DNA from: an uncultured delta proteobacterium
GTDB taxonomy: Bacteria > Desulfobacterota > Desulfobacteria > Desulfobacterales > JAFDCJ01
Assembly: GCA_963769935.1 (NCBI GenBank)
Contig: CAVYNY010000009.1
Coordinates: 315,671 to 379,670, forward strand
Direction of reading: 5' to 3'
Length of the DNA stretch: 64,000 bases
Position numbers and translations under genes: made by a program. The first letter of the stretch is position 1, and the number at the start of each line of letters is the position of its first letter. Below are positions 45,077-64,000 of the stretch, piece after piece. The notes beneath the pieces are model-generated. The model was not told the DNA's origin. It made no database searches and saw only the letters and a program-made list of their open reading frames with translations.

Positions 45077-45122
45077 TTACGTAAAGCCGTCGTCTTCACG
45101 CCGTCTGTTCCACTGGTTCGCA
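45077..45122 (-). repeat. Truncated attC (5' half), distal end of array
   Basis: TGCGAAC..gaacagacggcgtgaagac..tttacgtaa, homologous to attC 56362..56466, immediately after the relE stop. Confidence 0.7.
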
Positions 45123-45282
45123 TCAGCGATAAATATCCTTCCGGTGGCCGACATTTTACAACCCAGACTGTCATTTCATCATCTTGTATAGAATATAAAA
45201 TCCGATATCGCCTTTGCCGCAACCGATACCTCTGTTGCCCTGTCAATTTTTCGCATCCCGGGGGACGAGGATCTTCTCCAAG
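45123..45282 (-). pseudogene. RelE/ParE toxin, 3' remnant
   Basis: DPRPPGCEKLTGQQRYRLRQRRYRILYSIQDDEMTVWVVK(VGHRKDIYR*). Confidence 0.8.
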
Positions 45283-45293
45283 CAGGAGACATA

Positions 45294-46130
45294 GGGGTCG
45301 CATCTCAAATATTAAGTATTTTCCTTCTGATTCGATCCTCCCGCCCCTTAAGCTTTCGATCCGCCTCAAGTTTTTTCGCGATCCGGTCATGCCGTGCCGC
45401 GATTCCAGCTCCGGAGATGTCGAACCGTCTGCCCAAGGCGACACCGGTTTCTCCCGTCAATTCCCTGCAAAGATAAATCGCCACATCCCGGGCTAAATTC
45501 CTCTTTTTCCCTTTTTGTAGGATGCTTTCTATCCCGCAACCGAATTCGTCGGAAACCGCTTCAATAAGATCATCGGGCGTTGGGCGGGGTTTCAGGATTT
45601 TCAGTTGCGGGATCTCCTTGCTGTTCGATTCCTTGCTTAAAAATGTCTTCTTCACCCAGTTTACGAAATCGACTCGCCCCAAAACAACACCGCCCACGAC
45701 GTCATCGGACGGATTCTCAATCTTTATGTTTTCGACCGACTCGACAAAATCACGGTATCCTTTTTTCGCGGTGTTCCTGTCCTCTCCGAACAGCGACAGT
45801 AACCAGTCCGTCTCCAGCCATTCCGGAGACTCAACATAGCCGCTTAAAGCCCGGTAGCTGCTCCATGGATAGTCTCTGCAATGTTCAACCATCCTCGCCC
45901 GCACCGGATTCAGATGGATATATCGCGACAGGTGCTTTAAATATTCATCCGCGTCCACCAGCACGGCTTTGAAGCGCCCTTGGAACAGATGACCGAAGCG
46001 TCTTCGTTTGCGATTGAAATACACCGAATAACCGACGTTGATCCATTTGATCGCCTGACTCAGGTTCGCATGCGGAGTTTCTATCAAAAAGTGATAATGC
46101 GTGCTCATCAGGCAAAAGGTATGGGCGATT
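45294..46130 (-). mobile_element. 5'-truncated Y1/HUH (RAYT-like) transposase with DnaA-like C-terminal HTH and its GACCCC end
   Basis: CLMSTHYHFL, GHLFQGRFKA, RYIHLNP, YPWSSY, ARDVAIYLCRE; stop followed by GATGCGACCCC|TAT. Confidence 0.85.
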
Positions 46131-46164
46131 TGGATCTTTGATTGTTTTGTCTTTAGAAATATTC

Positions 46165-46355
46165 TGCTCAGTATGTAATTTATCAAAATCTTCTTGAAAA
46201 ATTGCTTTATCTTCATTTTGCCTGATGAATTCAGCAACGCCTGATTTCTCGAGCGCCTCTTTAAGAACCGGTGTTTTTGTAAATTTGCGTTGCACTGCAC
46301 GGGCAGCACACCATACTGAGAAATTGTGTCGATGTTGGAAATGAGAATAATTCAT
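46165..46355 (-). pseudogene. 3'-truncated cassette gene (hypothetical)
   Basis: MNYSHFQHRHNFSVWCAARAVQR.. starts just after an attC, then fuses to the transposase fragment. Confidence 0.55.
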
Positions 46356-46732
46356 TTATTTGCCATATCGCTGCTCTTCAGAAGGCGCGTTTTTTTGCGA
46401 TCCGCTGGAAAAGCTTGTTGGGCCGTTGAGATATTGGCTTGAACGGCTTCTGCATGCAATTTTAAACCAAGTGCGCGCATAACTTTAAGTATTGTGTCAA
46501 AACCAGGGCTTCGTTCCCCAGACAGTGCCTTGTAAAGACTCTCGCGCGATAAGCCGGCATCACGCGCCACTTGTGACATACCTTTAGCCCGGGCTATATC
46601 TCCAAGAGCTTTTGCAATAAAAGCAGCGTCACCTTGCGCTTCCTCAAAACAGGCTTCAAGATAAGCGGCCATTTCCTCCGGGTTGCGAAGGTGTTCGGCG
46701 ACGTCATACTTAGTCGTGATAGTCTTAGCCAT
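46352..46732 (-). CDS. Addiction-module antitoxin (HI1420-like HTH)
   Basis: ALGDIARAKGMSQVARDAGLSRESLYKALSGERSP; ORF reads through the attC. Confidence 0.9.
   Translation of the reverse strand: MAKTITTKYDVAEHLRNPEEMAAYLEACFEEAQGDAAFIAKALGDIARAKGMSQVARDAGLSRESLYKALSGERSPGFDTILKVMRALGLKLHAEAVQANISTAQQAFPADRKKTRLLKSSDMANK
46363..46423 (-). repeat. attC site (R' mutated GTT>GAT)
   Basis: GCCCAAC aagcttttccagcgg...cttctgaagagcagc GATATGG. Confidence 0.7.
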
Positions 46733-46741
46733 GATACACTC

Positions 46742-47032
46742 CTATATATTCCTTGCGAGACGTAGGGCGGTTTTTATATCCTTGGCTTGCGTATTTTTGT
46801 CGCCGCCAGCCAGCAAAATTACCACCTTTTGTCCTTGTTTTTTAAAATACACCCGATATCCAGGTCCATAATCAATCCGCAATTCTGAAACGCCTTCACC
46901 AACCGGCTTCACATCTCCAGGATTTCCAGCTGCCAATCTTTCTATCCGCACAAGGATTCGAGCACGTGCGCGGATGTCATGCAACCCATCAAGCCATTTA
47001 GCGAAAATTTCTGTCTTGCGAATTTCAATCAT
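46742..47032 (-). CDS. Addiction-module toxin (HI1419-like, RelE superfamily)
   Basis: GNPGDVKPVGEGVSELRIDYGPGYRVYF, LLAGGDK. Confidence 0.9.
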   Translation of the reverse strand: MIEIRKTEIFAKWLDGLHDIRARARILVRIERLAAGNPGDVKPVGEGVSELRIDYGPGYRVYFKKQGQKVVILLAGGDKNTQAKDIKTALRLARNI

Positions 47033-47038
47033 GATAGT

Positions 47039-47089: not shown

Positions 47090-47194
47090 AGCCAACGTTT
47101 GGCGTGAGCAGCGGCCCAAATAAATACCAAGCTTGCACGGCATTTACGAAAATCCTCGATTTTCACGCCGTCTGCTCCAGTCGCATGGTTATAA
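47090..47194 (-). repeat. attC site
   Basis: TTATAAC...tggagcagacggc...gccgctgctcacgccaaac GTTGGCT. Confidence 0.85.
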
Positions 47195-47207: not shown

Positions 47208-47522
47208 TTAGGCCGCATTAGAACTAAGAACCTGCACCTCTTTTTCAAGACGCTCTGCAAGGAGATCCTCCGTTACTTCAAGGTCAAATCGGTTTTGGAG
47301 ATTTAGCCAAAATTGAGGTGGCATTCCAAAGAAACGCCCTAAACGCAAGGCTGTATCCGCTGAGATGGACCGTTTCCCATGAACAATCTCGTTAATGCGT
47401 CTTGGAGGCACACTTATATCTTTGGCAAGTCTATATTGACTAATACCCATTGGGTTAAGAAATTCCTCAATAAGAATTTCTCCAGGATGAATGGGAGGTA
47501 GTTTTTTATTTTTCATGATCAT
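47208..47522 (-). CDS. higA: HigA antitoxin
   Basis: PIHPGEIL, RINEIVHGKRSISADTALRL, FWLNLQ. Confidence 0.93.
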   Translation of the reverse strand: MIMKNKKLPPIHPGEILIEEFLNPMGISQYRLAKDISVPPRRINEIVHGKRSISADTALRLGRFFGMPPQFWLNLQNRFDLEVTEDLLAERLEKEVQVLSSNAA

Positions 47523-47525
47523 CTC

Positions 47526-47807
47526 CTAAAGATAATCTGCAATTTCAACATCATACGCATCACCGGTTTCCCATTTGAAACAAATTCTCCACTGATCGTT
47601 TATGCGAATGCTATGTTGACCTTTTCGGTCTCCTTTTAATGCTTCCAATCTGTTTCCAGGTGGAACGCGCAATGTATTTAGTTCGGTAGCTGCATCCAAA
47701 ATAACCAATTTCCTGCGCGCAAGATGCTGAATATTTTCCGGTAATTTTTTGGAAAGAATTCTATTAAAGATTTTTTCAGTTTCTTTACCCCGGAAGTTTT
47801 TTATCAT
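47526..47807 (-). CDS. higB: HigB toxin
   Basis: PPGNRLEALKGDRKGQHSIRINDQWRICF. Confidence 0.93.
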   Translation of the reverse strand: MIKNFRGKETEKIFNRILSKKLPENIQHLARRKLVILDAATELNTLRVPPGNRLEALKGDRKGQHSIRINDQWRICFKWETGDAYDVEIADYL

Positions 47808-47813
47808 AGTAAG

Positions 47814-47918: not shown

Positions 47919-47978
47919 TTATAACGCGCCGGTTCAGCGGTGGCGCCCAGCGCCGCCCGCTGCAACCGATTGTTCGAC
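47919..47978 (-). repeat. attC site
   Basis: GTCGAAC aatcggttgcagcgg...ccgctgaaccggcgc GTTATAA. Confidence 0.9.
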
Positions 47979-49229
47979 GGCCCGATATACGGCGCTCCCG
48001 CGCTGATCCTGCACGAGGTCATTTGCGGCGACGACATGCTGAATTGCGTCAGCTGTCATCGAATACCTCGTGACGGTTTCGCCGGCGAGGCGTACCGCCA
48101 AGGGCGGGGAGAGCAGGGCGCGTGCCGCAACGATCGCAAGTGGAACCAGACTTGGGAGGTCATGGGGCACGGGAGTAAGACAATCACGACTTCCTTTGTA
48201 CGGACCTCGATGTGCAATTAGCCGAACGAACTCACCAAGCACTGCCTTCCGCGTCTTAACGTAGGCAGCGGTCCCAAGCAAGACCGCTAATGAACTGTGC
48301 GTGCGGACACCAGGTCGTCCAACTCGCAAACCCGCTATTTCCTCTTCGCGAGAGAGCGCGAGCTGAAGTTCGGGCAGGTTGACGCCGCTTGCCGCAGCGT
48401 TGCCCGGCTCCACCGTCCGCGGGTTGCACTCGATGTAGAGGTGGTCCTCGCCTCGAAACATGTAGTCGAGCGTGAGCCCCCCATGCCAACGGAGTCGATT
48501 ACCCAGAACAGCCACGTCGTGCCGTGCGAACGCGTGGTCAATCCCAACCCGTCCGGCTGCGCTCGGGCCAATTCCCACTGCGGTTTGAGTGCTCGTATGA
48601 ACGGCGACGAGACGCCCGCGATCAAACAGTGCCTGCACCTGCGCGTACTCTCCATCAGCGGCGGCCTGAACCATGATGGGGCCGCCATGCTCGGCGGAGT
48701 GAAGCGATTCCCAGGCTCGTGTCGCATCAAGGCTGTTTGTGACTTTGCGCACACCAGACCCAGCCGTGCTGAATGAAGTCTTGAGGTAGAAAGGCGTGGC
48801 CCAGCCGGTAAGCTTCCCGGGCACGTCGACCACCTGCCACTTCGGCTGCGGGAGCCCTGCCTCATCCAGTAGGCGGGCGAATTCAATCTTGCTTTGGACA
48901 CGAGAGAACGCCTCGGCCGAGGCGATGGCGATCCGAACGCCTTGGCCGAGCCGCGATCGCCCAACGGCGAACAACCACGCCTGTTCGTGCGTCGGCAGAA
49001 GAACGTCGAAGGCACCTGTGGCGAGCAAGTCGTTAACCACCTTGAGGTAGCCAAGTGGATCTTTCGCCGCGGGAGGGCAGCGATGCACGCGCTTCGTCCA
49101 CCGACTAAAGCGGCAGATGCAGGCTGGGTCGGGATCGACGATCTCAATGTGATGGCCTGCAGGCCCCAGAACACTCAGAAACTCCCGTGCTGTCAGGCTA
49201 GATCCTTCAGAGAACAATATGCTAGCCAC
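47934..49229 (-). CDS. ATP-grasp fold protein (cassette)
   Basis: LLPTHE, SKIEFARLLDEAGLPQP, YLKTSFSTAGSGV, YIECNPR. Confidence 0.8.
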   Translation of the reverse strand: MASILFSEGSSLTAREFLSVLGPAGHHIEIVDPDPACICRFSRWTKRVHRCPPAAKDPLGYLKVVNDLLATGAFDVLLPTHEQAWLFAVGRSRLGQGVRIAIASAEAFSRVQSKIEFARLLDEAGLPQPKWQVVDVPGKLTGWATPFYLKTSFSTAGSGVRKVTNSLDATRAWESLHSAEHGGPIMVQAAADGEYAQVQALFDRGRLVAVHTSTQTAVGIGPSAAGRVGIDHAFARHDVAVLGNRLRWHGGLTLDYMFRGEDHLYIECNPRTVEPGNAAASGVNLPELQLALSREEEIAGLRVGRPGVRTHSSLAVLLGTAAYVKTRKAVLGEFVRLIAHRGPYKGSRDCLTPVPHDLPSLVPLAIVAARALLSPPLAVRLAGETVTRYSMTADAIQHVVAANDLVQDQRGSAVYRAVEQSVAAGGAGRHR

Positions 49230-49287: not shown

Positions 49288-49350
49288 GTCGAACGCCGCT
49301 TTTCAGCGGGCGCGCGCTTTTTGCGCTCCGCTGCAAAAGCTTTGTTATGT
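49288..49350 (-). repeat. attC site
   Basis: ACATAAC aaagcttttgcagcgg...ccgctgaaaagcggc GTTCGAC. Confidence 0.9.
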
Positions 49351-50205
49351 GTGCTCATGGGATAGTTCATTGCGAAAGAAATCTCCCAAGTCTTCCTTGC
49401 CACAAGAGGGCCCCACCATATTTCTCGTGATGACCGTCAGCGTGAATTCCGCCTGCCCATAAATTCTCTCTGGCGTGAGCTTCCTGACGAGCCACAGGAG
49501 GATTTTTGCGAAAAACACCGGGATGCATGTGACCTTTGGTTTGGTGCCCAGAGCGGCGAACGCTTCATGCGCAATTTCTCGATGCTTGAATATCACTGGA
49601 CCTCCAAAGCTCAGTTCCTGATCATCAAGATCAATTGCATCGATACATTTACCAGCAACATCCTTTCCGGATATCGGATTGATACGGAAGTCCCCTCGAC
49701 CGAAGAGGAAGACCCGACCGCTCTTGGCCATGTCCAAAAACGCGCGCATGTCCGAGAAATAACCGTTCGGGCGAATAATGGTGTAGTGGATGCCAGACCT
49801 ACGGAGTTCGCTGACAAAGCGCTCTTTCGCTTGAACAATCATAAGATCCGGCATCTGGTCAGCGTGCAGCACGGACACGTACACAAATTTCTTCACTCCG
49901 CAACTGAGAGCTTCCTTGAGAAGATTGAGGTTTCCCTGATAGTCGACATCCCGATAGCGAAGACCATCTTTTTGTCGGGTAATTCCGATGGCCGAAATAA
50001 CTATATCAATGTCCTGTGCAATCCCAGCCAAGGTGGACGGCTTCGTCACTTCTCCGACGAACACCTCATCAATCGCTGGTCGGGCTTGTGACAACTTCTG
50101 TTCGGAGCGAGTTAAAGCGCGTATCGCGTACCCTCTCTCCTTTGCTTCCTCAAGCAAGAAGTTGCCGAGATATCCTGTTGCTCCGGCTATTAGTACTTTT
50201 GGCAT
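49345..50205 (-). CDS. Atypical SDR / NAD(P)H-binding oxidoreductase (cassette)
   Basis: GATGYLG, DVDYQGN, IIRPNGYF; stop lies in the attC R'' box. Confidence 0.85.
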   Translation of the reverse strand: MPKVLIAGATGYLGNFLLEEAKERGYAIRALTRSEQKLSQARPAIDEVFVGEVTKPSTLAGIAQDIDIVISAIGITRQKDGLRYRDVDYQGNLNLLKEALSCGVKKFVYVSVLHADQMPDLMIVQAKERFVSELRRSGIHYTIIRPNGYFSDMRAFLDMAKSGRVFLFGRGDFRINPISGKDVAGKCIDAIDLDDQELSFGGPVIFKHREIAHEAFAALGTKPKVTCIPVFFAKILLWLVRKLTPERIYGQAEFTLTVITRNMVGPSCGKEDLGDFFRNELSHEHT

Positions 50206-50221: not shown

Positions 50222-50327
50222 ACATAACGTTGGCGGATAACCAGCGGGCTTACAGCTTTTCAAGCTTGCACGGCATTTCCGGTAAAGCGCATCAGTTATC
50301 CCGTCTGGTTGATCCGCCTGGTTATGA
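50222..50327 (-). repeat. attC site
   Basis: TCATAAC caggcggatcaaccagacggg...cccgctggttatccgccaac GTTATGT. Confidence 0.9.
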
Positions 50328-50723
50328 ATTGTCCCACGGTATTAGAGAATATACTATCAAGATAATGCCAACGCCAATTAATAAAAGACCAGTACTGCTT
50401 GGAATATGAACTCTGTATTTATAGTCCCATTCTTCAAAATAATAAATTAGTCCTCCGGGGATTAGCATCAGTCCCATCAAAAGCGTTTGATACTTTGCTT
50501 TAGGGAAATTTGATGGAAAATTTAATTGTATAGAGATTTTGGACTTATCTGCAAATACAAATAGAGGGATGAAAAAAACAAATATGAATAGAGGAAAAGC
50601 CAAAAGGGAGAAACCAAATACGGCGCCAGATCCATATGCTATTGCAGCTAAAATAAAGGCCACTATCCAAAGAGCTATCCAGCTCCAGAAAATAAGAGTC
50701 CATCTATTTTTTATTTTAGCCAA
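50322..50723 (-). CDS. Hypothetical 4-TM membrane protein (cassette gene 2)
   Basis: Four hydrophobic segments; stop in R'' box; start overlaps the upstream stop. Confidence 0.7.
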   Translation of the reverse strand: MAKIKNRWTLIFWSWIALWIVAFILAAIAYGSGAVFGFSLLAFPLFIFVFFIPLFVFADKSKISIQLNFPSNFPKAKYQTLLMGLMLIPGGLIYYFEEWDYKYRVHIPSSTGLLLIGVGIILIVYSLIPWDNS

Positions 50724-51156
50724 TTTTTTCCATAGTTCCTATCGGCTTCGTTCTGTAAATGAGATAGAACCAAAACCCATTCCACAGCCCTAAAGCCAAA
50801 AAGGAAACCAAACGGACAGTTGAAGATGGAGGACCTTGAGAAAACCCCCAAGCAAAACTATTTGCGGAATAAATGGCACTGATTACAAGAATAACCAATG
50901 CCATTTTCCTTGCCCACACTTTCTTGCAAAGAATACCTATCCCTGAAATTAGAAAAAAAATATTCATTACATTTTCTCTTGCGTATGAACCTACTTTGTA
51001 GGCAAACGATTTCGCTTGAAACTCTGGATGGTGTGGGCCAAGTCCAGTTAAAGGCCACAAAATTCCAAGACCACCGGCAATGATAAGATAAATCGCTGCT
51101 ATTTTAATTCCTTTTGTAGGAACCACGCTCCGTTTGTTTTGGTTATCGTCGTGCAT
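50716..51156 (-). CDS. Hypothetical 4-TM membrane protein (cassette gene 1)
   Basis: Four hydrophobic segments; ATG about 20 nt after the R' box. Confidence 0.7.
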   Translation of the reverse strand: MHDDNQNKRSVVPTKGIKIAAIYLIIAGGLGILWPLTGLGPHHPEFQAKSFAYKVGSYARENVMNIFFLISGIGILCKKVWARKMALVILVISAIYSANSFAWGFSQGPPSSTVRLVSFLALGLWNGFWFYLIYRTKPIGTMEKIG

Positions 51157-51177: not shown

Positions 51178-51239
51178 GGCTAACGCTACGGCTGAGAGGC
51201 GCGAGGTAACGAGCGTCCGACTCCAGCCGATTGATACTT
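51178..51239 (-). repeat. attC site (R'' degenerate)
   Basis: ..aatcggctggagtcggacgctcg...cgcgcctctcagccgtagc GTTAGCC. Confidence 0.75.
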
Positions 51240-51261: not shown

Positions 51262-51690
51262 TTAATCGTATGCTGGATAATTTGTATCTGGGATGTGTGA
51301 ATGTTCTATAATTTTCCATTCACCATCGACTTTTTGCACCAAATACCAAAATTTTGTCTTCGGGTTCTTTTTTGCCGGATGTCTCATTTTCACCTCGACA
51401 ATTAGTTCCACGGCATCCTTTTCAATGGCAAGTCCGGAATATGAGGTTGTTCCGGCTCTGTCCGTATTGGTTGAACGAATAATACTGTATTCAATCCACC
51501 AATTTTCTAGACTTCCCTCAAATCCTATAGGATAAAAGCATTTAGATAAAACGTCTCGATCACCATAATTTTCGAAATACGTTTTCAGCGTGTTTTCAGG
51601 TGATGAAAAGTCCACCAAAGGCTGAGCGCTTGCAATACTAAACTGAACAATTGCAAGGCATAGCGATAATATGAATAGGTTTGCCTTCAT
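51262..51690 (-). CDS. Exported hypothetical protein, NTF2-like (cassette)
   Basis: Signal peptide from MKANLF; SPENTLKTYF and WYLVQKVDGEWKII are typical of NTF2-like small proteins. Confidence 0.65.
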   Translation of the reverse strand: MKANLFILSLCLAIVQFSIASAQPLVDFSSPENTLKTYFENYGDRDVLSKCFYPIGFEGSLENWWIEYSIIRSTNTDRAGTTSYSGLAIEKDAVELIVEVKMRHPAKKNPKTKFWYLVQKVDGEWKIIEHSHIPDTNYPAYD

Positions 51691-51699: not shown

Positions 51700-51952
51700 A
51701 CATAACGCCGCCTTCACCAGTTCATCTGGTGAAAGGCGTGGTTGGGAATTTTGGTCAATAAACTCAAACAGGTTATCGCTATAAACAAAACGAGCTGTGA
51801 AGAATGAAGGCCTACCCCCTTTTTCCAGGCCTTAGACAGATGATTGCTTAAACCGCTCTTTTTAAGTCCAAAAATATCGCTCTAAGACCAAAAAATGGCC
51901 ATATTTTTGACCTAAACCCGCATCAAATAAGCATCCAGTTTGGTCCGACCCC
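51700..51952 (-). repeat. 253-bp non-coding module, copy 1 (GGGGTCGGACC end + 48-bp attC at 51700..51747)
   Basis: Ungapped match to 59713..59965. Confidence 0.9.
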
Positions 51953-52069
51953 TAATCGACAATCCAGAAAGAAAGCCGAACGCATGATTCATGGGCACCC
52001 CTCCGGGCCGGCTCCTATTGCGGCACCTCCGCTCGGCATGGATGCAGGCGCCTTTTCGCTGTTATTTCG

Positions 52070-53422
52070 TTACTTCACCACCGTGGCGATTTTCGACCGT
52101 ACGGGAATGTTCACGGAATTCAGCCCAGGCGTCTGGCCGTGCAGGTCGAACTTGAGCTTCACCTGAGGCCGGAAGATCAGGCAGTGCGTGGAGCCGCCGA
52201 AATGGAACATGCCGAGTTGATCGCCTTTGCTCACACGTTGCCCCACTGACACAGTAATTTCGTTCGAGGAAACCTCCGCCATGCCTACGAAGAGGACCGC
52301 CATCAGGCCGATGTCCGGATTGTCCGCTTCGATGAAGATCAACGCCCTGCTCGCAACCTGGGTTATGTATCCCTGCGACTCGTTGGGCCCCGCCGGATCG
52401 AACCCCACCGACAAAGCTTCGGCATAGTACGATCCGTCGATCAGCCGGGTCTTCACGATCCTTCCGCTGACCGGACTGTGCCAGCGGTGGTAGCTCAAAG
52501 CACTGAGAAAGGCCTGATAAATCGTACCGCCTTCGAATTGCCCGATAAGGGGATCACCAGCCAGCATGTGGTAAAGTGAGTAAGGTTGTGATTTGATCCA
52601 GAATGTGTCGCTCCCCTTCACGTCCCTGGCGAGCCGGTAGGGAGCCGACTCGCAGGCGTTGGCAATGACCGCTTCGTCCATGGGGGAGGCCACCGGCCGT
52701 CGGCCTTTCCGGAACCGGCGAGTGAAAAAGTCATCCCAGGAGGTGAATCCGTAGTAGGGCTTTTCCGGATCGCACTGAAAATCCTCGACGAAGGTCGGCA
52801 TCGCTTTTTTCGCGTCCCGGCCGAACCATCCGGTTTCGGGATTGTCATTCAGGACGTATCGAGACTCTTTCGACTTTAGGAACTCGCCCCATTGATCCAG
52901 AATCTTTTTTATCTGGCTGTTCACCTTTGGATTCAGGAAAACGGTCGTCCCTGCCGGAGTCGCCATGGGCCAGTTGATGATGGCATTAATGGGAAACCCG
53001 ACCAGACCCGTCTGGTTGAATTCAGGGGCCTTGGTCATGATCTGGTTGATGAGCTGCAGCATGAGCCGGTAGTCCCTGATCTGGGGCCGGCCGGTGGGGT
53101 CTTTGCGGTACTCGGGGGTGTTGCTGGGAACCTGCTCGAACATTTGAGTAAAGAGCATGAGGAGCTCCGGGTCGCTTTCGATAAGGTTCTTGAACTCCTG
53201 AACGACAAGCGCCAGGGGCTGGGCTTTGTCATTGGTTTCCAGGACGAGGTCTTTAACCCATTGATTCAGGACTTGCTGATCGGAGGGCTGCCACTGGCCG
53301 ACCTGGTAGGGAACCGGCTTTTCGGTTGCATGAGGGCTTAACTGCTGCGCCGCCGCACAACAAAAAACTGACAGGTGCAGGAGTGCAACACTTAGTAAGA
53401 TCTTCTTCAATATACTCGACAT
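52070..53422 (-). CDS. Phosphatidylserine decarboxylase family protein with signal peptide
   Basis: DFFTR, SYHRWHSPV, GMAEVSS, FHFGGST autocleavage motif. Confidence 0.9.
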   Translation of the reverse strand: MSSILKKILLSVALLHLSVFCCAAAQQLSPHATEKPVPYQVGQWQPSDQQVLNQWVKDLVLETNDKAQPLALVVQEFKNLIESDPELLMLFTQMFEQVPSNTPEYRKDPTGRPQIRDYRLMLQLINQIMTKAPEFNQTGLVGFPINAIINWPMATPAGTTVFLNPKVNSQIKKILDQWGEFLKSKESRYVLNDNPETGWFGRDAKKAMPTFVEDFQCDPEKPYYGFTSWDDFFTRRFRKGRRPVASPMDEAVIANACESAPYRLARDVKGSDTFWIKSQPYSLYHMLAGDPLIGQFEGGTIYQAFLSALSYHRWHSPVSGRIVKTRLIDGSYYAEALSVGFDPAGPNESQGYITQVASRALIFIEADNPDIGLMAVLFVGMAEVSSNEITVSVGQRVSKGDQLGMFHFGGSTHCLIFRPQVKLKFDLHGQTPGLNSVNIPVRSKIATVVK

Positions 53423-53527
53423 ATGCCATTCTCCTTGTTGAAATTAAAGATTCGGCGGCCCGGGGGGGCCACAGTAACATATTGATGAATTTTCATGCGA
53501 AAACTGGCCGATTAAGAGGCATGGATA

Positions 53528-53758
53528 TTAGGGGACGTTCCCCGGATTCTCGGATTTGACCTCTCCCAAATGCTGCCATCTGTGCTCCTCGATGATTTGC
53601 CGTCCTCTCGTCGTAAATTCGCTTGCCGTAGAGTACGCGATGTTTAGTTTTTTCGATATCCAGACCGCGCTCATCCACAGCTCTCGCGTCCTCCAATAGC
53701 ATAATATGCTCCGAGCTTTTACCGCTCTTCGTTGCTTTCCGCCCGTTATTATTTCAGG
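53528..53758 (-). pseudogene. 3' remnant of a RAYT-like transposase with terminal repeat
   Basis: Translates GGKQRRAVKARSILCYW..ISKKLNI..SENPGNVP*, homologous to the 3' end of 54264..55301; GGGGACGTTCC at 53531. Confidence 0.85.
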
Positions 53759-53771
53759 TGCAAAATAATAA

Positions 53772-55497: not shown

Positions 55498-55626
55498 TCA
55501 TAACGTGGAAGTGAGGGGCCGGGCAGGGATTGCCTAAACTCTAAATAATGACCACAACCTGCTGAAAAACAATAGTTGTAAAAATGGCACGGCTTTGCCC
55601 GTTCCCTCTCCACTGATTTGTTCTGC
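55498..55626 (-). repeat. attC site
   Basis: GCAGAAC aaatcagtggagagggaacgggc...gcccggcccctcacttccac GTTATGA. Confidence 0.88.
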
Positions 55627-55629: not shown

Positions 55630-55860
55630 TCAGTGAGTCTTAATATGGTTGTTAAATTTTTCCGCCAACTCCAAAATTGAAAGTTGAAGGCCTGCTATCT
55701 TTTGAATTGCCCAAGCTTGAAAAATTTCATCCTTACGATTCTTGTCATTAGGATGCTCTTCAATATACGATTGATAATGCGCATGGAATTCATAGATTAG
55801 GTCCTCAGTTTTTGCATCAACTCTTTTTAAACTTTCCGCTAATTTATCAGCACTTGACAT
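55630..55860 (-). CDS. Small hypothetical protein, 76 aa (cassette)
   Basis: SD AAGGGAG, ATG at 55860, fills the space between two attC sites. Confidence 0.7.
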   Translation of the reverse strand: MSSADKLAESLKRVDAKTEDLIYEFHAHYQSYIEEHPNDKNRKDEIFQAWAIQKIAGLQLSILELAEKFNNHIKTH

Positions 55861-55884: not shown

Positions 55885-55951
55885 GCAGAACGTAGGCTTC
55901 AGCGGGAGCGGCCGCTTTTTGGCCGCGATCCGCTGAAAGCCATGGTTCTGT
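55885..55951 (-). repeat. attC site
   Basis: ACAGAAC catggctttcagcgg...ccgctgaagcctac GTTCTGC. Confidence 0.9.
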
Positions 55952-55957: not shown

Positions 55958-56352
55958 TTATATCTGATATTCTTCGATAAAATTCGGCTCTCCAATCTCC
56001 TTGGTAAATGCCGATTTTGCCTTCAAATGCAATTTTTTCCCATACATGGTGAAAAGAACCAACTCCATTTTGCGATCAGTTTGAAATGGCAATTTCATCA
56101 TATTTACCGATTTATTGCCATCAATGATGAAGAATCCATAATCAATATCATTTGGCAAATCATCAGGGAACTCGATGACAGTTACCCCTAAACAAATAAG
56201 CTCAATTTTCTGAACCAGCCGGTTCCTTTGCTAATTCCGGGTGTACCTCCGCTATGGTGAACATAAGCTTCATCAAAATAAAGAATTGCCTCATCGTTGG
56301 TAACTTTAATTTCTTTTAAAGTAGAATCGTGAAATTCAATTTCTCTGTTCAT
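55958..56352 (-). CDS. Hypothetical protein, about 130 aa (cassette; frameshift near 56210)
   Basis: MNREIEFHDSTLKEIKV...GTGW then IELICLGVTVIEFPDDLPNDID...EEYQI*. Confidence 0.65.
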
Positions 56353-56361: not shown

Positions 56362-56466
56362 ACAGAACGTCCTGCGATGAGCAGCGGCCCAATTTCAGAC
56401 AAATTTTGCAAGGCCTTTACGTAAAACCGCAGTCTTCACGCCGTCTGCTCCACCGACTGGTTGGGC
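56362..56466 (-). repeat. attC site
   Basis: GCCCAAC cagtcggtggagcagacggc...gccgctgctcatcgcaggac GTTCTGT. Confidence 0.9.
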
Positions 56467-56467: not shown

Positions 56468-57892
56468 TTATTGCAATTCAAGACATTTTCGCAACCCGTA
56501 GTGAACCGAACATTTCTTTCTAACCCTAAACCTTTTTGTCGGTTCTCTATATTTGAAATCAGGAGTCGTCCTATCTGGCGAGTCAAAAATTCCAATCGCA
56601 CTAAAATCAAAGAGCTTACCCAGAATGTTATTTACAGATGTATCAGACTGAATACTCGCCTTTTGGAAGTACCTGTTTATATCTTTGGCATAAAAGGAAC
56701 TTTTTCCATGATCGCGAATAGCCTCAAGAACTGACTCTATATCAGGCACAAGCGCAGACACTTCATCGACCAGTTCATCTCGAAACCAGTCACTATATTC
56801 GGTTTCGGCAGCGATGAATGCTTGCCGATTCGCAATAGAGAGCTGCTGTTTTCGACAAACACGCTGAAGGCATTTTGTGAATTCAATAACATCTCGAGGT
56901 CTGAGGAATGTTCTAGCAAGTAACCAGGAAAAGGGCTTAACATTCCCTCTAATTTTATCTTTAGTTGTGATACGTCGCCAATAGTCCGTAGCTTCATTAG
57001 GTACCTGGTCCATTGAGGCACCAATGCGCAAGTTGATCATATTAAAAAGGGATGATGTCATAGGTGAACCATGCCCTATAGACCAGTCGATATCTAACCG
57101 CCTATCCTTGATTTTATTTCTATCAGAATACTGCAGTTTTTTATATATATCATCTCGCAAGAGCGCAACAGCTCTTATTGTCTTGTGATTTGCCTCACAA
57201 GTTGAATTAATCTGATCTAACGCCTTTAGCAAACCAATTAGTATATCGTTATAATCATCAGGCCTTGCCTCATAAATATCATCCAATTCATCGCAAAACA
57301 GAATATATTTATTTGCAAGATTTGCAGATCGTATCAGACATTCCTCTAAGCTATCAAGGTACCGCAGTAAGTCTATTTCTTCTTCTCTATCCTTAGTTTT
57401 TTTAACAACATGCGCTTCAACAACCTTTACACGGAGCTTCATACCCTTTTCAATTGTTGATGACAGGTAGTCAACTGCCTTTGCCTTAAGGTCAGGGCAA
57501 TTCAATTCTAAAAATGCAGACAGCTGTTGACTCTCAACCGGTGGGACAGACTGGTCGCGAATCACCAATTTCGACAACTCAAGAAGTAGGATATATCGCC
57601 ATACTGGAACGAACTTTGAAGCCCCAGCGAAGCGTGAATCCTGAAACTTATCGATAAGACCAAGAGGTATGTCTCTGCCGGAAATCACATCAGCTATTTG
57701 GTCATATGTATTTATTGAGGTTTTAATTATGTATGTAGATATAGCTGTTTTACCAGAGCCTTTTCTTCCAACAATCAAATGTATTTTACCGTCAATAACT
57801 TTTTTGACCTCACCCGTGTCATAAAAGTAGCGCTCTAAATTATCATACTTTGCTTCATTAGATCCAAAATCTATCACTCGTATATCGTACAT
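56468..57892 (-). CDS. P-loop ATPase (FunZ/Sll1717-like) (cassette)
   Basis: Walker A GRKGSGKT, Walker B LFCDELDD, LLRDDI, RTFLRPRD; SD AGGAGG before ATG 57892. Confidence 0.8.
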   Translation of the reverse strand: MYDIRVIDFGSNEAKYDNLERYFYDTGEVKKVIDGKIHLIVGRKGSGKTAISTYIIKTSINTYDQIADVISGRDIPLGLIDKFQDSRFAGASKFVPVWRYILLLELSKLVIRDQSVPPVESQQLSAFLELNCPDLKAKAVDYLSSTIEKGMKLRVKVVEAHVVKKTKDREEEIDLLRYLDSLEECLIRSANLANKYILFCDELDDIYEARPDDYNDILIGLLKALDQINSTCEANHKTIRAVALLRDDIYKKLQYSDRNKIKDRRLDIDWSIGHGSPMTSSLFNMINLRIGASMDQVPNEATDYWRRITTKDKIRGNVKPFSWLLARTFLRPRDVIEFTKCLQRVCRKQQLSIANRQAFIAAETEYSDWFRDELVDEVSALVPDIESVLEAIRDHGKSSFYAKDINRYFQKASIQSDTSVNNILGKLFDFSAIGIFDSPDRTTPDFKYREPTKRFRVRKKCSVHYGLRKCLELQ

Positions 57893-57923: not shown

Positions 57924-58051
57924 GCCCAACGGGGCGTTTCACCTGCCGGCGGTGGGCTTTAACAATAAAGCTCGGATTGAAAAATCGAATACAAATCGAA
58001 TGTTGCAGGCCGCAAGATATAGCCGGTCAGAGTGCAAACGCATGGTTAGGA
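57924..58051 (-). repeat. attC site
   Basis: TCCTAAC catgcgtttgcactctgaccggc...gccggcaggtgaaacgcccc GTTGGGC. Confidence 0.9.
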
Positions 58052-58066
58052 ATTTTCTCAAACTTT

Positions 58067-58381
58067 TTATATGTTAAAGAAATTTTTTTTGATTATTCTC
58101 AGTCCACAATGGACGCATTCATTTCTAAATGGATTTAACAAACCCCAAAAACCTTGAAAGTACCTCTCACAGCGAGGGCACTTGGTAAAAGAAAAATAAA
58201 AATATAGAAAAAATCAACGAGATAGCAAAAAGAAAATATACTAACTTAACGGCAAAATAGTTATTCTCGACAAAATTTAATATAAACATAATCGGCATCA
58301 AAATAAGAAAAAGAAAAACAGGTAGACGTTTCCTTCTCCTTAATTTTTTAATGCCGATAGTAAATCAGACTCATCTGTCAT
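58067..58381 (-). CDS. 2-TM protein with C-terminal zinc ribbon (cassette; two homopolymer frameshifts)
   Basis: Reconstructed MTDESDLLSALKKLRRRKRLPVFLFLILMP..TKCPRCERYFQGFWGLLNPFRNECVHCGL; absent from the ORF track. Confidence 0.6.
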
Positions 58382-58391: not shown

Positions 58392-58522
58392 TCCTAACGG
58401 TTGAGTTGTGGGGCCGGGAAGCAATGAATTAGTGAAATTAAAAATGGCACATAATTGGTATCAACCACGACTTTGAAAAAAGCCACGGTTTTTCCCGGAC
58501 CCACACCAGCGAATTGTTGGGC
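58392..58522 (-). repeat. attC site
   Basis: GCCCAAC aattcgctggtgtgggtccgggaa...ttcccggccccacaactcaacc GTTAGGA. Confidence 0.9.
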
Positions 58523-58530: not shown

Positions 58531-59686
58531 TTACCCAGCCTTGGACGACGCTTCGTCGCCGCATATGATACCCGCTGCCTCGATCAGCTGGACCCATTCG
58601 TCGCTGACCTTTCTGGCTTCCAACATCACCATCAATCCCTGCCGTAGTCGCCTCAAAACAGGCCGGAGGTCTCGCGACATTTTCTCGATAGGCGCGATGG
58701 CATCAATCATCCCTTTAGCAGATCCGAGCCCCTCACGAGAAGCTGCAGACATGGTTCGAATTGCCTCGAAGAATTCACACACTCCCGCCTTCGCTTCGGG
58801 CTCGCGCTCGATCTCGGACGCGGCATGCTCGATTATGGTACGGAATCCCAGGTCAACTTCGTGGAGCTGTGATGCGAATTCGTTACCGAAGGATCGGATA
58901 CGCTCGACCGGGTCAGTTAGATGACGGGCAACTCCCCTAGCGAACGACCAGTCGTGCAGCAAATCCCTTACCTTGGTTCTCGCGACCCTGGATGTCCGCC
59001 GTGGCCTCCTGCATTGTCTGTCCGATCAGTTCGATATCCTTTCCAATCGCGGTGATCGTCTCGACAAGCCTCGGAAGCGCGTCTTCCGCCGCAGCAATTC
59101 GATCAATGAACCCAGGTGATTCATCCGCGCCTTCGGAACCACCCTCCTCGACTTCCAGGACACGGGCAGCGATATCGACACCTTCAACCTGTCGATTAGC
59201 CTCAACTATCCTCGCCGCTAGCCGCGCTACGGCCTTCCGATAGTTTCCCGACGAGGTCTCTTCAAACCGCAGCTCGCGCCAGTCGTCCCACTGGAACGCC
59301 TGGACAACTGCCAGTAGATCGTCCTGCGGAGATTCGTCGTGAAGGCCGGCCACATCAAGGTAGAGCAATGGGAGCACGAGCTCCTTGATTCCAAGATTTG
59401 TTGCCTTTCTGGAGAAAAACTGCAGTTCCCTACGACATTCAGGGCTCATGAAGTACCTGGGCGTCAGCACTGGTATGAAGAAAGCAACTGAAGCAAGGCT
59501 GGAGTCGATTTTGTCCTTCCAATTGTCGCCCCATTTGATCGCGTCCTGGTCCAGAAATAGTTCGAGGGCTTCACCCGTTAGCATCTCAAATTGGCCCTTT
59601 ACGTCTTTTGCCAGTCTTGAGATTCGGCCGCCTTCGGCCTCGTCATCGGCGTGGACGTAAGACCAGAATCCTTGTAAAGTCGCCAT
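58531..59686 (-). CDS. TIR-domain protein with helical C-terminal domain (cassette; frameshift near 58945)
   Basis: GFWSYVHAD, LFLD..IKWGDNW, FFIPVLTPRYFMSPECRRE; two collinear ORFs fill one cassette. Confidence 0.85.
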
Positions 59687-59712: not shown

Positions 59713-59965
59713 GCCCAACGCCGCCTTCACCAGTTCATCTGGTGAAAGGCGTGGTTGGGAATTTTGGTCAATAAGCTCAAGCAGGTTATCGCTATAAACA
59801 AAACAAGCTGTGAAGGATGAAGACCTACCCCCTTTTTCCAGGCTTTAGCCAGATGATTACTTAAACAGCTATTTTTAAGTCCAAAAACATCGCTCTAAGA
59901 CCAAAAAACGGCCCTATTTTTGACCTAAACCCTCATCAAATAAGAATAGAGCTTGGTCCGACCCC
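59713..59965 (-). repeat. 253-bp non-coding module, copy 2 (GGGGTCGGACC end + 48-bp attC at 59713..59760)
   Basis: Ungapped match to 51700..51952. Confidence 0.9.
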
Positions 59966-60119
59966 GAATCACACTGCTGGTAAAGACCGAACATTTCCGA
60001 CGATCTGAGCAAACAACTGGTCACCACTGATTGCGGATCCTTGAGACTCTGTTTGTACAAGAGCAATTCTCGAACCACAGCGGACTATTTGATCCAACAC
60101 TGTCTAAGCGCCTAACGGA

Positions 60120-61865
60120 CTATAGGTTCAGAGCTTCTATGTTGTCGACTCCGAACCAGTCGCCGACCGTCTGCATGGCCGCGGCGGAAAGCTCTTGTGT
60201 AAAGAGAACGGCCAGACGCCTCTTCGGCCTCGAACAGGTGACGTAGAAGAGATTCCGATTGCGCTCGAAGGCGGCTTCTTTGTTGGCAGGAATCTGTGCG
60301 CCCTGTCCCGCCAATTCGAGCATCTCGTTGAAGTTATACCTGTTCCAGCCTCTGCCGACGACGACGAGGACGTTCTCGAACTCGGCACCCTTGACGCCGT
60401 GCTTCGTCTCGAACGGAGAATGGCCCGACAGGTAGCGGCACAGGGCGACGATTTCCCGGTACGAAACGGCCCGGAGGTCGCCGAGCTCCTTCAGCGCTCG
60501 CGGCATGTCCTCGCCGGCCTCCGGGTCGAACTCCCGCAATTCGCGTTCGCGCCGCTCGACGGCATCGGGAACCCTCGGCCGGCGCACCGCAAGCAAATGA
60601 TCCACCACGTCGCCGACCGTCGCGCTGGCTCTCAACTCGATGAGCCTGTCCATGGCCTCGGACCATTTCTTCTTGTCGGCCTGAGCGCGGATCGCCGGCA
60701 CGTTGGAACCGAGTGCACGGAACATCTCCCCGTACTTCTTGGAGAGGTAAGCCTCACAGGCCGGCTCCAGAGCGTCGGCGAAATAGGCGATATGCGGATG
60801 CTCCTTGTTCGTGAAGGACTCGTTGAACGCGAAGACCGTCGGAATGCTGGGATATCCCTGCTTGCCGGCAAGCACGCGATGGGTGAGCATCAAGATCTTG
60901 GTGGTCTCGGGAGACAGATCCCAGCCGTCTTCGCCAAGACGATCGAGGACGGTCTGAAGCGCCCGGTCTGCGGCTTCGGTAGGAAGGTCTCCGCCCCAGT
61001 GGCCGCCGGTCTGACGGGCACCTGTCCAAGTGTTCGTATGAAAGATGCGGATGCTGCCCTGTTCGTTCGGATCGACGACGAATTGAGGCAGTTCGGGCCT
61101 CATGCGGTTCAGGCATTCGACGACCGTCGAAACCGACCGGAAGTTCGCCTGCTTGCCGACGACCGTCAGGCTTGGATGCTCGATCTTTCCGCATCCGTCG
61201 CCATAGATTTTCTGCCAGTGGTCGCCGAAGAAGCCGAATTGTGGCGATCCCTCCTGTCCGAGGAAGTGGGTCTTGATCGAGTCGATCCAGTCGGCGTTGG
61301 TGTCCTGATACTCGTCGATCAATATGATCGGGTACTTGTCCGCCAGGATGCGCCTGAACTTGGCGTTGTCCATGAGAGCGATAGTCAGGATAAGAACGTC
61401 GTCGTGATGGATGGAGACACGACGGTCGTTGATGCTTCTGTGCCCAAGCTCGTACTCGACGGCACGCTCGCCGAGGTCGCCGACTTCGGCGATCCTGTCG
61501 GGCCAGTGCTGGAGCTGCGGCAGCCGTTCCCGGAGTTGTCTTTGGAAACCGCTGATGAGCGACCAGCAGAATGCGTGGATCGTATTGCAATAGATGAGCG
61601 GGCTCCGGTCGGTCCGGGCGTCGATCTCGTCCTTCGCCACGTTGGTGAAGGTGATGCACGCGATCTTCTGATGCCGCTGCGGCAGAATGTGCTCGTAGCG
61701 GTCCATGAGGAAGTGGAGCGCCTTGACGAGCGTGTAGGTCTTTCCGGCGCCAGCGCCGGCTTCGACGAGGAAGCTCTCTTTGCGCTCAAGGCAGCCATAC
61801 ACCTCAGCGAGGGCTTTTTGGCTGGCCTCTTCGGCCGGGTTCAATTGTTCCACGACCTCAGCCAT
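60120..61865 (-). CDS. gajB: UvrD-like helicase, Gabija GajB
   Basis: AGAGAGKT, ITFTN, LIDEYQD, FGDHWQKIY, NFRS, TKHGVKGAEF, FYVTCSR; start overlaps the gajA stop. Confidence 0.85.
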   Translation of the reverse strand: MAEVVEQLNPAEEASQKALAEVYGCLERKESFLVEAGAGAGKTYTLVKALHFLMDRYEHILPQRHQKIACITFTNVAKDEIDARTDRSPLIYCNTIHAFCWSLISGFQRQLRERLPQLQHWPDRIAEVGDLGERAVEYELGHRSINDRRVSIHHDDVLILTIALMDNAKFRRILADKYPIILIDEYQDTNADWIDSIKTHFLGQEGSPQFGFFGDHWQKIYGDGCGKIEHPSLTVVGKQANFRSVSTVVECLNRMRPELPQFVVDPNEQGSIRIFHTNTWTGARQTGGHWGGDLPTEAADRALQTVLDRLGEDGWDLSPETTKILMLTHRVLAGKQGYPSIPTVFAFNESFTNKEHPHIAYFADALEPACEAYLSKKYGEMFRALGSNVPAIRAQADKKKWSEAMDRLIELRASATVGDVVDHLLAVRRPRVPDAVERRERELREFDPEAGEDMPRALKELGDLRAVSYREIVALCRYLSGHSPFETKHGVKGAEFENVLVVVGRGWNRYNFNEMLELAGQGAQIPANKEAAFERNRNLFYVTCSRPKRRLAVLFTQELSAAAMQTVGDWFGVDNIEALNL

Positions 61866-63910
61866 CTTGAGCCACCGCTGCTTCGGGGGCGTCGGCGGCG
61901 GCTGCCTGGACGATCGCCGCGTCCGCATCAGGAATGCCGCCAGCCGCCAGCCATCTCAATCCGTCGAGGATATAGCCGGGCGCGGTCCAGCCAGTTTCGT
62001 CGATAGCGTATTTGAGGGCGAATTGGGACTTCTTGATCTTGTCGAGCTTGTCCCATGCGCACTGGGCCTGCTCTTCGGGCGTGGCGCCTTCGATACCGAA
62101 CATCGCCGGATTCGCCAGCATGAACGCGTCCTCGAAGGTGCGGCCGCACGGACCGCCTTCGGCCTCGGGCCGTTGAAAGGCGATGCGCCGGAGTTCCTTG
62201 ACCTTGGCCGCGTCGTCTTTCGCCAGAAGGGCCTCGGGCGAGCAGTCGCCATCTCCGAACCAAGTGTTGAGACAGGCGTTGCTCGTGGCCGTTCCCTCAT
62301 GCACCGGACAGGCGGCCCCGCCGGCGGCAGACGACGGAGTCGAGGTCCGTGATGATGAGGGTCCGCAGCTCCAGAAAGTCGAGAAGGTCGAAGAATATGT
62401 GCGCGTAGGCGCCACCGACTTCCATGGTCGTCATGTACTGGCTGGACAGCTTGGGCGCGTCGGGCTCGGCCTCCTCCAGCTTTTCGATGATCACTGGCAA
62501 CAGCAGGCGCTCGCTGGTGCCTTCGATCAATATGGCCTTGTCGGCGAAGAACAGGTCGCAGCGAGTCAGCGTCAGATACTGGTGGAGAAACCTTCTGTGG
62601 TCTTCCGGCGTTTCGCGCAGCCCCTCGCGCAGGTCCTTGATCTCGGTCTGGCGAACGCCACCGGCGGCGGTCGGGAGGAAATACCGGATCGCCTCGAAGC
62701 CGGCGGCGTTGGCGACGTGGGAGGAGTGCGTCGATACGATGAACTGGACCGGCCAGGGCAAGGGAGCGCCCTCCTGGTCGCTGAGCTGTTGAGCGATCTT
62801 CGATACCTGGCGGATGAACACTTCCTGCATCTGGGGATGCAGGTGGGCCTCGGGTTCCTCGATGAACACGAGGTGGACGCCGGGAGCGTTCGGTTCCGCG
62901 CGGAAAGTGCGATAGAAACTGACGATCCGAAGCAGGATGAAGATGAGATTGCGTATTCCGAGGCCGGTATAGGATTCCGGCAGCAGGATTCCGTGATGGC
63001 CCGCGTATCTCACCTTGGTGTGGCGTGAAAGGAGGCGTTCCACGTCGAGCGTCGTCTCCGTCTCCAACTCGGAACCGTCGAGGCCGGGATAGCCGAACGT
63101 GCGCAAGGTCGGCATCAGCTTCCGCAGCTCGTCTTTGAAGCCGCCCTCGATCGTTTGCTGAATGTCGCGCACGGCCTCTTGCAAAGCTTGAGCGATGGCT
63201 TGGTCGGCCTGATCGGCGGTCGGCGATTTCGCGGCGGTGAAGAGACCTTCCAGGATTTTGGCCAGAACGTCGGTGTCTCTCGACGTGTCGTCGTCGAGCC
63301 CGCGTTGGGCGTTCACGAAACCCGTCTTCAGGAGTGACCGGAGCGCACTCACGGTCATCTGCTTGCGGTTGGTAGCGTCGTTAGGGTCTTCGGCCCATAT
63401 GCTGGCGACGAAGAGAGCGGGCACGCGCTCGCGGAGCAGTTGGAAGAAGGCGAGCCGGTCCTCGTCGGTCAGGTCGCCGGCCGGCTGATCGGCGAACAGC
63501 GACTCGATGGCGCCGTCGCGCAACTCGTAGCGCGCCACGACGAGCGCTTCGTTGCAGTCGGGGTCGAGGTCGATGACGAAGTCGCTGAGAGGGCCAAGCT
63601 CGGGCTGTTCGGGATCGTATCGGAACAGGAGTCGCAGCTCGATGCTCGGAATCAGAGCGCGAACCTCATCGTCTTGCCGGCCCGCGTTCTTGGCCTTGAG
63701 CGCTTCGCAAAAGCCGTCATATGAGGCGTTCGAGAAGTCTTCGATCTGGAATTTCGGGTTCTGATCTACGAGAAACCGGCGGATGGCCTCCGAAAGCGAT
63801 GTCTTGCCGCTGTTGTTGCGGCCGACGACGAGAGTCGTTTGGTCTTCCAGCACCAACTCCACGTCGGCCAGAAGCCGGAAGTTTCTGACCGTGACTTTGT
63901 GGATGTGCAT
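61858..63910 (-). CDS. gajA: OLD-family ABC-ATPase/TOPRIM nuclease, Gabija GajA (frameshift near 62330)
   Basis: GRNNSGKT, IEEPEAHLHP, STHSSH, LFFADKAILIEG..E, ITDLD. Confidence 0.88.
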
Positions 63911-63942
63911 GTTGGTCCCTTACGATCAGTTAAGATTTTGCC

Positions 63943-64000
63943 ACATAACGTTTCCGGGTGAGGTGCGGCCCTCGATCCATAGCGAACCAAAAGCCTATAC
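63943..64000 (-). repeat. attC site, 3' part (continues beyond window)
   Basis: ..gggccgcacctcacccggaaac GTTATGT, 32 bp before the gajA ATG; same style as other attC 3' arms. Confidence 0.7.

Follow-up and report, generated by a model that had tools for sequence, protein, structure and literature searches.

A probable CALIN-type integron cassette array interrupted by TIRtron transposons in an uncultured delta proteobacterium

The window examined here is a stretch of 64,000 nucleotides from the genome of an uncultured delta proteobacterium of the Desulfobacterales (assembly GCA_963769935.1, contig CAVYNY010000009.1), corresponding to G000:C9:315671-379670, in which G000 stands for the assembly and C9 for the contig. 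From 45077 to its last base, the window very probably holds an integron cassette array without an intact integrase in the assembly, i.e. of the CALIN type (cluster of attC sites lacking an integron integrase), which has since been interrupted by TIRtrons, transposons with a Y1 transposase and terminal inverted repeats (TIRs). Position 64000 is also the last base of the contig and lies inside an attC site. The array is real, belongs to a known kind and is mostly ordinary.

An earlier note, made from the letters of the DNA, had described a 19-kb array of 16 attC sites or attC remnants of 48-131 bp. This count is borne out by 11 complete sites of 48-131 bp, spanning 47090-59760, and five remnants at 45077, 46363, 51178, 53766 and 63943, all on the minus strand. 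The cassette array itself is also confirmed, but not as a continuous one: at 51.7-55.5 kb it is broken by TIRtrons, which are Y1 transposons, together with a gene that is not a cassette. With 15 sites of other contigs as its only training set (C9 was left out), a position model recovers all 11 complete sites with scores of 22.2-42.7. Eight of them score at least 24, whereas the 60 shuffles of 45001-64000 give a mean of 0.25 such matches and a best score of 31.7. Outside the array, one site scores 25.4. The R''-L''-L'-R' anatomy with an extrahelical base is present, and 5-7 of the seven L-box bases are paired after one bulge. Between adjacent sites, R' and R'' are complementary at 7/7 bases in 8/15 pairs versus 4/112 non-adjacent pairs, and all eight links named in the earlier note are of this kind; the remaining seven adjacent pairs are not 7/7 complementary, in a test where the coordinates of remnants are off by one or two bases. 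From 47090 to 50327 the cassette chain is perfect and its open reading frames (ORFs) are whole. The GC content of the stretches between attC sites ranges from 0.29 to 0.61, in agreement with the shift of base composition noticed earlier. The features of the array are as follows, from the contig end leftwards.

63943..64000, minus: right half of an attC with R' GTTATGT, cut by the contig end
61858..63910, minus: gajA, for an OLD-family ATPase-Toprim nuclease; one extra base at about 62331-62334 splits the gene (PADLOC)
60120..61862, minus: gajB, UvrD-like, whole (PADLOC GajB, E 5.3e-265)
59713..59970, minus: TIR + attC unit, consisting of a TIRtron left end (about 59855-59965), a cassette tail of about 95 bp and a 48-bp attC (59713-59760)
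58531..59686, minus: gene for a TIR domain with a four-helix bundle, frameshift near 58940-59025 (Pfam TIR_2)
58392..58522, minus: attC, 131 bp
58059..58376, minus: small hydrophobic ORF with CxxC motifs, in two frames
57924..58051, minus: attC, 128 bp
56468..57889, minus: P-loop ATPase of the Sll1717 family, whole (NF047389, 294 bits against a cut-off of 75)
56362..56466, minus: attC, 105 bp (family at 21 genome places)
55958..56352, minus: ORFan in two frames, no family match
55885..55951, minus: attC, 67 bp
55630..55860, minus: 76-aa ORFan cassette; cluster of 10 proteins
55498..55626, minus: attC, 129 bp
54264..55358, minus: complete TIRtron; Y1 (HUH) transposase with a DnaA_C-like tail at 54264-55301 (Pfam Y1_Tnp and Bac_DnaA_C)
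53843..54235, minus: alpha/beta hydrolase gene truncated at the TIRtron end, C-terminal half
53766..53815, minus: attC left half, whose loop is fused to a TIRtron remnant
53523..53746, minus: 3' remnant with end repeat, a second copy of the family of the TIRtron at 54264-55358
52070..53422, minus: phosphatidylserine decarboxylase (PSD)-family gene between two TIR ends (Pfam PSDC and PS_Dcarbxylase)
51700..51957, minus: second TIR + 48-bp attC unit (attC 51700-51747), 92.5% identical over 254 bp
51262..51690, minus: 142-aa ORFan with a signal-peptide-like N-terminus, no family match
51178..51239, minus: decayed attC, R'' mutated
50322..51156, minus: two membrane-protein ORFans, no family match
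50222..50327, minus: attC, 106 bp
49345..50205, minus: NAD(P)H-binding SDR-like oxidoreductase cassette
49288..49350, minus: attC, 63 bp
47934..49229, minus: ATP-grasp-like protein cassette, GC 0.61 (weak NCBIfam matches)
47919..47978, minus: attC, 60 bp
47208..47807, minus: HigB-HigA toxin-antitoxin cassette
47090..47194, minus: attC, 105 bp
46352..47032, minus: RelE/ParE-family (HI1419) toxin and HI1420 antitoxin (TIGR02683 and TIGR02684 over cut-off)
46363..46423, minus: decayed attC, R' mutated
45294..46123, minus: 5'-truncated TIRtron of a second family, with end repeat
45160..45283, minus: RelE/ParE toxin gene truncated at the TIRtron end, 3' remnant
45077..45125, minus: attC left-half remnant, the distal end of the array

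Three of the remnants align to complete attC sites of this genome well above shuffles: 45077 scores 58 (shuffle maximum, 33), 46363 scores 60 (30) and 53766-53815 scores 48 (30). The alignment of 51178 is not above its shuffles (24 versus 31), but this remnant is supported by its fold z-score of -2.6 and its model score of 19.1. The half site at 63943-64000 scores 30 against 30 for shuffles; it is accepted as an attC because its right arm scores 13.8, with a 99.9th percentile of 8.7, and because relatives of the Gabija cassette have their boundary there. An Rfam scan gave a single weak irrelevant match and nothing related to attC, and a MAFFT alignment of 12 attC sites was of too low quality for a covariance model.

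Cassettes of this genome have moved as units with the crossover between the G and the TT of R', as seen from the 76-aa cassette and from the Gabija boundary described below. The 76-aa cassette (55885>55498) stands a second time at C18:77957-78350, where its ORF is identical, its boundaries are exact and its neighbours are different ones; this is a direct sign of cassette movement. Across the genome, 13 attC clusters lie on 11 contigs, and the family of about 105-bp attC sites occurs at 21 places on 11 contigs. The earlier note had taken the heterogeneity of the attC sites to imply recruitment from many donors. Some cassettes are indeed foreign, as in the case of Gabija across phyla, but heterogeneity alone does not show many donors, since the sites belong partly to a few families recurring in this genome.

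No intact integrase gene is assembled. A search of G000 (8.0 Mb in 41 contigs, 96.7% complete and 5.4% contaminated) with the IntI profile TIGR02249 gave 18 matches and none over cut-off, and the profile is over cut-off in 7/23 same-genus genomes. Compared with a complete IntI from a relative, the main intI remnants, four in number, cover residues 1-178 and 341-365 (C17), 223-363 (C20), 51-183 and 258-363 (C13), and 246-363 (C16). All four have lost the middle part of IntI by large internal deletions. This deleted part holds the catalytic Lys, as placed by motifs. The closest intI pieces are on other contigs. As the contig stops within an attC site and every intI assembled is a remnant with an internal deletion, the array falls into the CALIN type within the assembly, the class which the earlier note had foreseen for an array without intI. 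The same note had placed attI and intI, if present, beyond 64000; they are absent from the window, while the contig ends at 64000 and only deleted intI has been assembled. The co-oriented attC cluster without a nearby intI is the same as in CALINs and sedentary chromosomal arrays, which are also alike in their heterogeneous sites, interruptions by insertion sequences (ISs), several clusters per genome and deleted intI (Cury et al. 2016, PMC4889954; Xanthomonas, 10.1101/2025.06.18.660453).

IntI recombination at the GTT of R' likely inserted the cassettes one at a time. Since all intI genes found in the assembly are broken, the array is likely frozen unless a recombinase is supplied from outside; IntI acting in trans could still shuffle it, and intact IntI is present in same-genus genomes. 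The toxin-antitoxin (TA) cassettes would stabilise the array. It is somewhat unlikely that the window contains instead the distal part of a complete and active sedentary integron, with intI-attI in the gap past 64000 and with frameshifts that are assembly errors. Such an integron would fit the contig end inside an attC, the whole IntI of same-genus genomes, the 76-aa ORF identical in two arrays, which points to recent movement, and the host genes for SecA and a sensor kinase, which are likewise split. However, the deletions in all four assembled intI genes are large and internal, not single-base errors. Moreover, the array running off the end of C17, the sole one of matching direction among the mapped clusters, sits behind a deleted intI, and no overlap between the ends of C17 and C9 was found, though the orientation fits. 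Local GC skew is too weak and mixed to orient the arrays relative to replication.

A deleted intI at G000:C17:217801-224035 precedes an array on the plus strand, in which a TIRtron contains a group II intron-like ORF; the array reaches the contig end within an attC-like sequence and could represent the upstream portion of the array in the window. At a second integron-like locus, G000:C13:559634-572111, a deleted and frameshifted intI accompanies a divergent array with a PIN-type TA and other cassettes.

The interruption of the CALIN-type array is ascribed to TIRtrons. The whole TIRtron at 54264-55358 is flanked by perfect 18-bp inverted repeats at 54268 and 55358, and TIRtron remnants occupy 45294-46123 and 53523-53746. 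PF01797 is over cut-off in both Y1 genes; PF08299 is over cut-off in one and weak in the other. The repeats of all three TIRtron families contain GGGGWS, and the last two letters of GGGGWSAS differ. The Y1 HUH domain, the DnaA_C-like tail and the inverted repeats starting with GGGG are the same as in TIRtron/TIRYT elements, the TnpA-Y1 subclass 2.1 (PMC3733652; PMC6006769). Unlike these published elements, the repeats here are without the final AS and a left end is fused to an attC; some TIRYT repeats are themselves described there as unrelated to the GGGGWSAS motif. Three TIR ends abut damage, namely a 5'-cut relE, a 5'-cut hydrolase gene and, via a remnant, a half attC. Such truncations are what adjacent deletions would leave, and the TIRtrons, having interrupted the array, likely caused these deletions by their ends.

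Some points weigh against the array as read here. The attC sites were scored by the analysis's own model. No excised circles or RNA were seen, the listed sequencing runs including none of this organism. Bottom-strand fold z-scores of the 11 complete sites range from -0.4 to -6.6 versus shuffles, and the complete sites at 55498 and 56362 fold no better than shuffles. An intact intI-attI may lie in unassembled DNA, the contig end being inside an attC and the genome 96.7% complete. Lastly, the presence of TIR ends at breakpoints is no proof that the transposase made the breaks.

Elements that target attC sites are known, e.g. IS1111-attC elements and group IIC-attC introns. In G000, 18 of 52 Y1 pieces are at most 3 kb from an attC, versus 3.1% of random places and 1/14 other ISs, with a threshold that yields 57 attC sites, and 7 when the genome is shuffled. 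In relatives, an attC was found within about 1.5 kb of 1/28 TIRtron loci and 0/20 loci with the TIR of the unit described below, by a model of low sensitivity. General targeting of attC by TIRtrons was rejected as unsupported by these loci of relatives and by the varying positions in G000, and the proximity in G000 is explained by shared islands without targeting. Third-family TIRtrons at G000:C35:20300-23404 and C20:221835-222947 lie between attC sites, one directly before HigBA, and some of their ends are tandemly duplicated. Group II intron-like ends occur just inside TIRtron left repeats at three places (L254 of G408, about 900-1400; G000:C17:220454; G000:C11:462600-463100), which suggests that these introns insert at TIRs. 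Identical IS110-family transposases are encoded at G000:C11:455992 and C15:147517, one of them 3.5 kb from an attC inside an array.

The Gabija system stands at the right end of the array. It consists of adjacent gajA (ATPase-Toprim) and gajB (UvrD-like), recognised by both PADLOC and Pfam, with PADLOC GajA matches of E 1.5e-238 and 1.3e-45 on the two pieces of gajA. The PADLOC check proposed in the earlier note thus found Gabija, the only recognised defence system in the array. The gene order and the strong PADLOC matches to one subfamily agree with Gabija as described in PMC10681800; unlike it, gajA here is split by one base and the operon is a mosaic of close relatives. The extra base near 62331-62334 is not found in three related loci (L058, L061 and L065) or in sequencing run X5, and Gabija would give phage defence if this frameshift is an assembly error.

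To compare the flanks, 80 loci with a GajB relative were scanned for attC. The scanner placed a site directly beside the Gabija operon in two of them, L058 and L061 (5 matches in shuffles overall), and at L065 a site beside the operon is evident by eye; at the other 77 loci no flanking attC was seen at the low sensitivity of the scanner. L065 (Porticoccaceae) is 92.7% identical in DNA, with an alignment starting at 63950, which immediately precedes the G of R'. L061 (Chlorobiota) is 89.4% identical, with an alignment likewise starting at 63950, and L058 (Caldilineales) is 93.9% identical in the 3' part only. In L058 and L061, an attC carrying the complementary R'' lies about 80 bp past gajB. 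Because relatives from three other phyla share the R' boundary or carry a matching attC, the Gabija unit is, judging from the alignments, a true cassette of 3.9 kb. This is large for the cassette class described as streamlined, and the word Gabija is absent from the main text of both reports on it (10.1101/2024.07.02.601686; 10.1101/2024.07.02.601719). In the window, the native attC of Gabija is missing and the TIR + attC unit stands in its place, so that Gabija and the unit would still be excised as one 4.2-kb piece. The 3' tail resembles the non-cassette copies L059/L060 as far as 59997/59983, and the best-matching relative changes along the operon, which is therefore a mosaic. At L058 (3725-5164), the 5' part of gajA is replaced by a different gene start and the downstream attC is kept.

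The TIR + attC unit of about 255 bp at 59713-59970 recurs at 51700-51957 (92.5%) and at C20:223547-223813 (89.2%). The three copies have different upstream DNA, joined at the TIR itself or no more than about 12 bp from it. The whole unit is present in one of 22 other same-genus genomes (G408, 95%), where a group II intron-like end is joined inside the TIR. In four sequencing runs from four studies, cover begins at 59712-59720, the R' crossover, and stops at 59964-59971, the TIR; contigs in two of these runs bridge the attC and TIR parts. The 48-bp attC has an R box, a spacer, an L box with one bulge and a 5-nt loop (-18.6 kcal/mol, z -6.6), and it is also found alone behind other DNA. Two or three extrahelical bases are usual in attC sites according to PMC2727003. 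The outer approximately 110 bp of the unit are a dispersed repeat in the order. This repeat is read as a left TIR, since it lies just upstream of the start of a Y1 gene in one of 20 loci of relatives. By the same count, the idea of two stacked transposase 3' ends was dropped: a Y1 gene stands beside the repeat at 1/20 loci only, with the repeat upstream of its start. A second, inner TIR may lie at 59812-59832. No TIR motif was seen beside PSD relatives at any of 4/4 loci.

It is likely that the unit spread within a cassette and was then joined to new upstream DNA by TIR-bounded deletions. Cassette duplication followed by such a deletion is a simpler account than active grafting by TIRYT. In the latter case, the unit would be a portable attC, whose TIR end is joined to new DNA by TIRYT acting in trans, making upstream genes excisable cassettes; this is quite improbable. 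It is equally doubtful that TIRtron transposases graft the minimal 48-bp attC 3' of genes as a means of cassette genesis or repair, by which the Gabija operon and the decarboxylase gene would have received a new attC here. Grafting would accommodate the three copies of 89-93% identity joined to different upstream DNA at or near the TIR, the fourth copy in G408, the limits of run cover and the bridging contigs, the likeness of the Gabija tail to L059/L060 up to the unit, and the abundance of Y1 pieces near attC sites in G000. Against this, attC sites are rare beside TIRtron loci of relatives, the unit has one proven TIR only, and Gabija was already a cassette by its shared R' boundary. In addition, the PSD gene is without a complete upstream attC, the 48-bp attC occurs alone behind other genes, and cassette duplication by IntI with adjacent deletions gives the same pattern. 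Among the matches listed, a literature search found no link of TIRYT or RAYT to attC sites, nor a description of a TIRtron left end fused to an attC, and the word integron is absent from PMC3733652. How cassettes first gain their attC is called an open question in the conclusions of PMC8618304.

The earlier note had seen a decayed left end and an intact right end. This gradient fails: with a perfect chain at 47090-50327, and with four split ORFs and the lost Gabija attC at the right, decay is patchy. The right-hand units with split ORFs are those of gajA, the TIR-domain gene, the small hydrophobic ORF, which has one more base at 58360 in run X7, and the ORFan at 55958..56352. Outside the array, the window also has split genes for a hybrid sensor kinase (26921-29744) and for an esterase (44268-45022), and secA on the same contig (G000:C9:23834-26200) has several frameshifts. 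Among 32 housekeeping motifs, 25 were matched, and a full-length ORF exists in 24 of those families. Indels are thus patchy in the assembly, as errors or pseudogenes, and the splits at the right show neither decay nor intactness. As host genes are split too, the right-end frameshifts are possibly assembly errors. Sequencing runs were compared by shared words, and none contains more than 13% of them. Genes for response regulators, PAS kinases and a sigma-54 activator are densely clustered at 9000-36000 of the window, and several of them are in pieces.

Defence and TA cargo, which the earlier note had claimed, is present as Gabija and two TA pairs. The units between attC sites, about 15 in number, include a single recognised defence system, two candidate ones and two TA pairs that are whole, the latter being type II cassettes in which toxin and antitoxin are adjacent between attC sites (HigB/HigA; TIGR02683/TIGR02684). 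The PSD-family gene at 52070..53422 is not a normal cassette, and it has a close match in 5/401 genomes of the order, this genome included. For Sll1717, a literature search found no report among the matches listed. One- or two-gene defence cargo and type II TA pairs are the same as in published integron cassettes, from which the present case differs in that the host is not Vibrio or an enterobacterium (10.1101/2024.07.02.601686; 10.1101/2024.07.02.601719). In the former, 783 defence systems were found in cassettes, never with more than two components and shorter than elsewhere. CALINs, arrays with a dead intI, IS interruptions and TA or defence cassettes have all been published (PMC4889954; 10.1101/2025.06.18.660453; PMC8618304; 10.1101/2024.07.02.601719; PMC5371416; 10.1101/2024.07.02.601686).

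A general variable island of cassette remnants, transposons and stray genes, in which the array would be a relic without a special defence role, is unlikely. It agrees with the PSD, SDR and ATP-grasp genes, which are not defence genes, with the single recognised defence system among about 15 units, with DDE and IS110 elements within 2-4 kb of attC clusters in 3/14 cases, and with split ORFs in four of six right-hand units. On the other hand, two runs of perfect cassette chains persist, neither TA pair is broken, relatives have an unsplit gajA, and genes outside the array are split as well.

One of the candidates is the protein with a TIR domain (TIR here being the protein domain) followed by long helices. 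Its family has 664 homologues at E<=0.001, the top matches being about 380 aa, and a Glu in the stretch SPECRRE is invariant across 40 aligned homologues. This Glu is at the expected catalytic place. The predicted model of the homologue P0004 (pLDDT 78) has a TIR fold and long helices, and its best matches in a fold search are TIR domains (Z 11.9, root-mean-square deviation (rmsd) 3.5, 145 aligned). Helical-bundle matches to MukF (Z 11.4, rmsd 3.7, 154 aligned) and syntaxin (Z 10.9) were set aside as under the level meaningful for bundles. The C-terminal four-helix bundle has no family match, and an atlas search with the C-terminal part gave no usable match. Among 80 metagenome loci of this protein, those with enough flank have an attC directly upstream in 3/71 and downstream in 4/62, counts that include two near-duplicate loci and compare with 1 match in shuffles; no neighbour family occurs at more than three loci. 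Thoeris or another named TIR defence system was rejected as an assignment, with only TIR-domain matches below cut-off and no conserved partner. The TIR fold and the invariant Glu are the same as in stand-alone bacterial TIR proteins (Thoeris ThsB/ThcB, the TIR domain of PDC-S66); unlike in these, there is a C-terminal four-helix bundle, and only the TIR part matches defence models. The protein might be a putative stand-alone abortive NADase, a guess that may as well fail as hold. In a metagenome array (L189/L190), a small TIR-like pair precedes the TIR-helical cassette and a large TIR-domain gene follows it, making this array TIR-rich.

The array adds an environmental example to the known theme that integrons store defence and TA genes. 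Phage tests have ready candidates in the TIR-helical family of about 380 aa and in the Sll1717 ATPase. The Gabija cassette shared across phyla and the TIR + attC unit are the parts that deserve follow-up. If TIRYT mobilises the unit, it would offer a testable route by which cassettes gain their attC. One Gabija cassette lineage, with a shared R' boundary or a matching attC, is found in four phyla at 89-94% DNA identity, a tangible example of how a large defence system can travel in cassette form.

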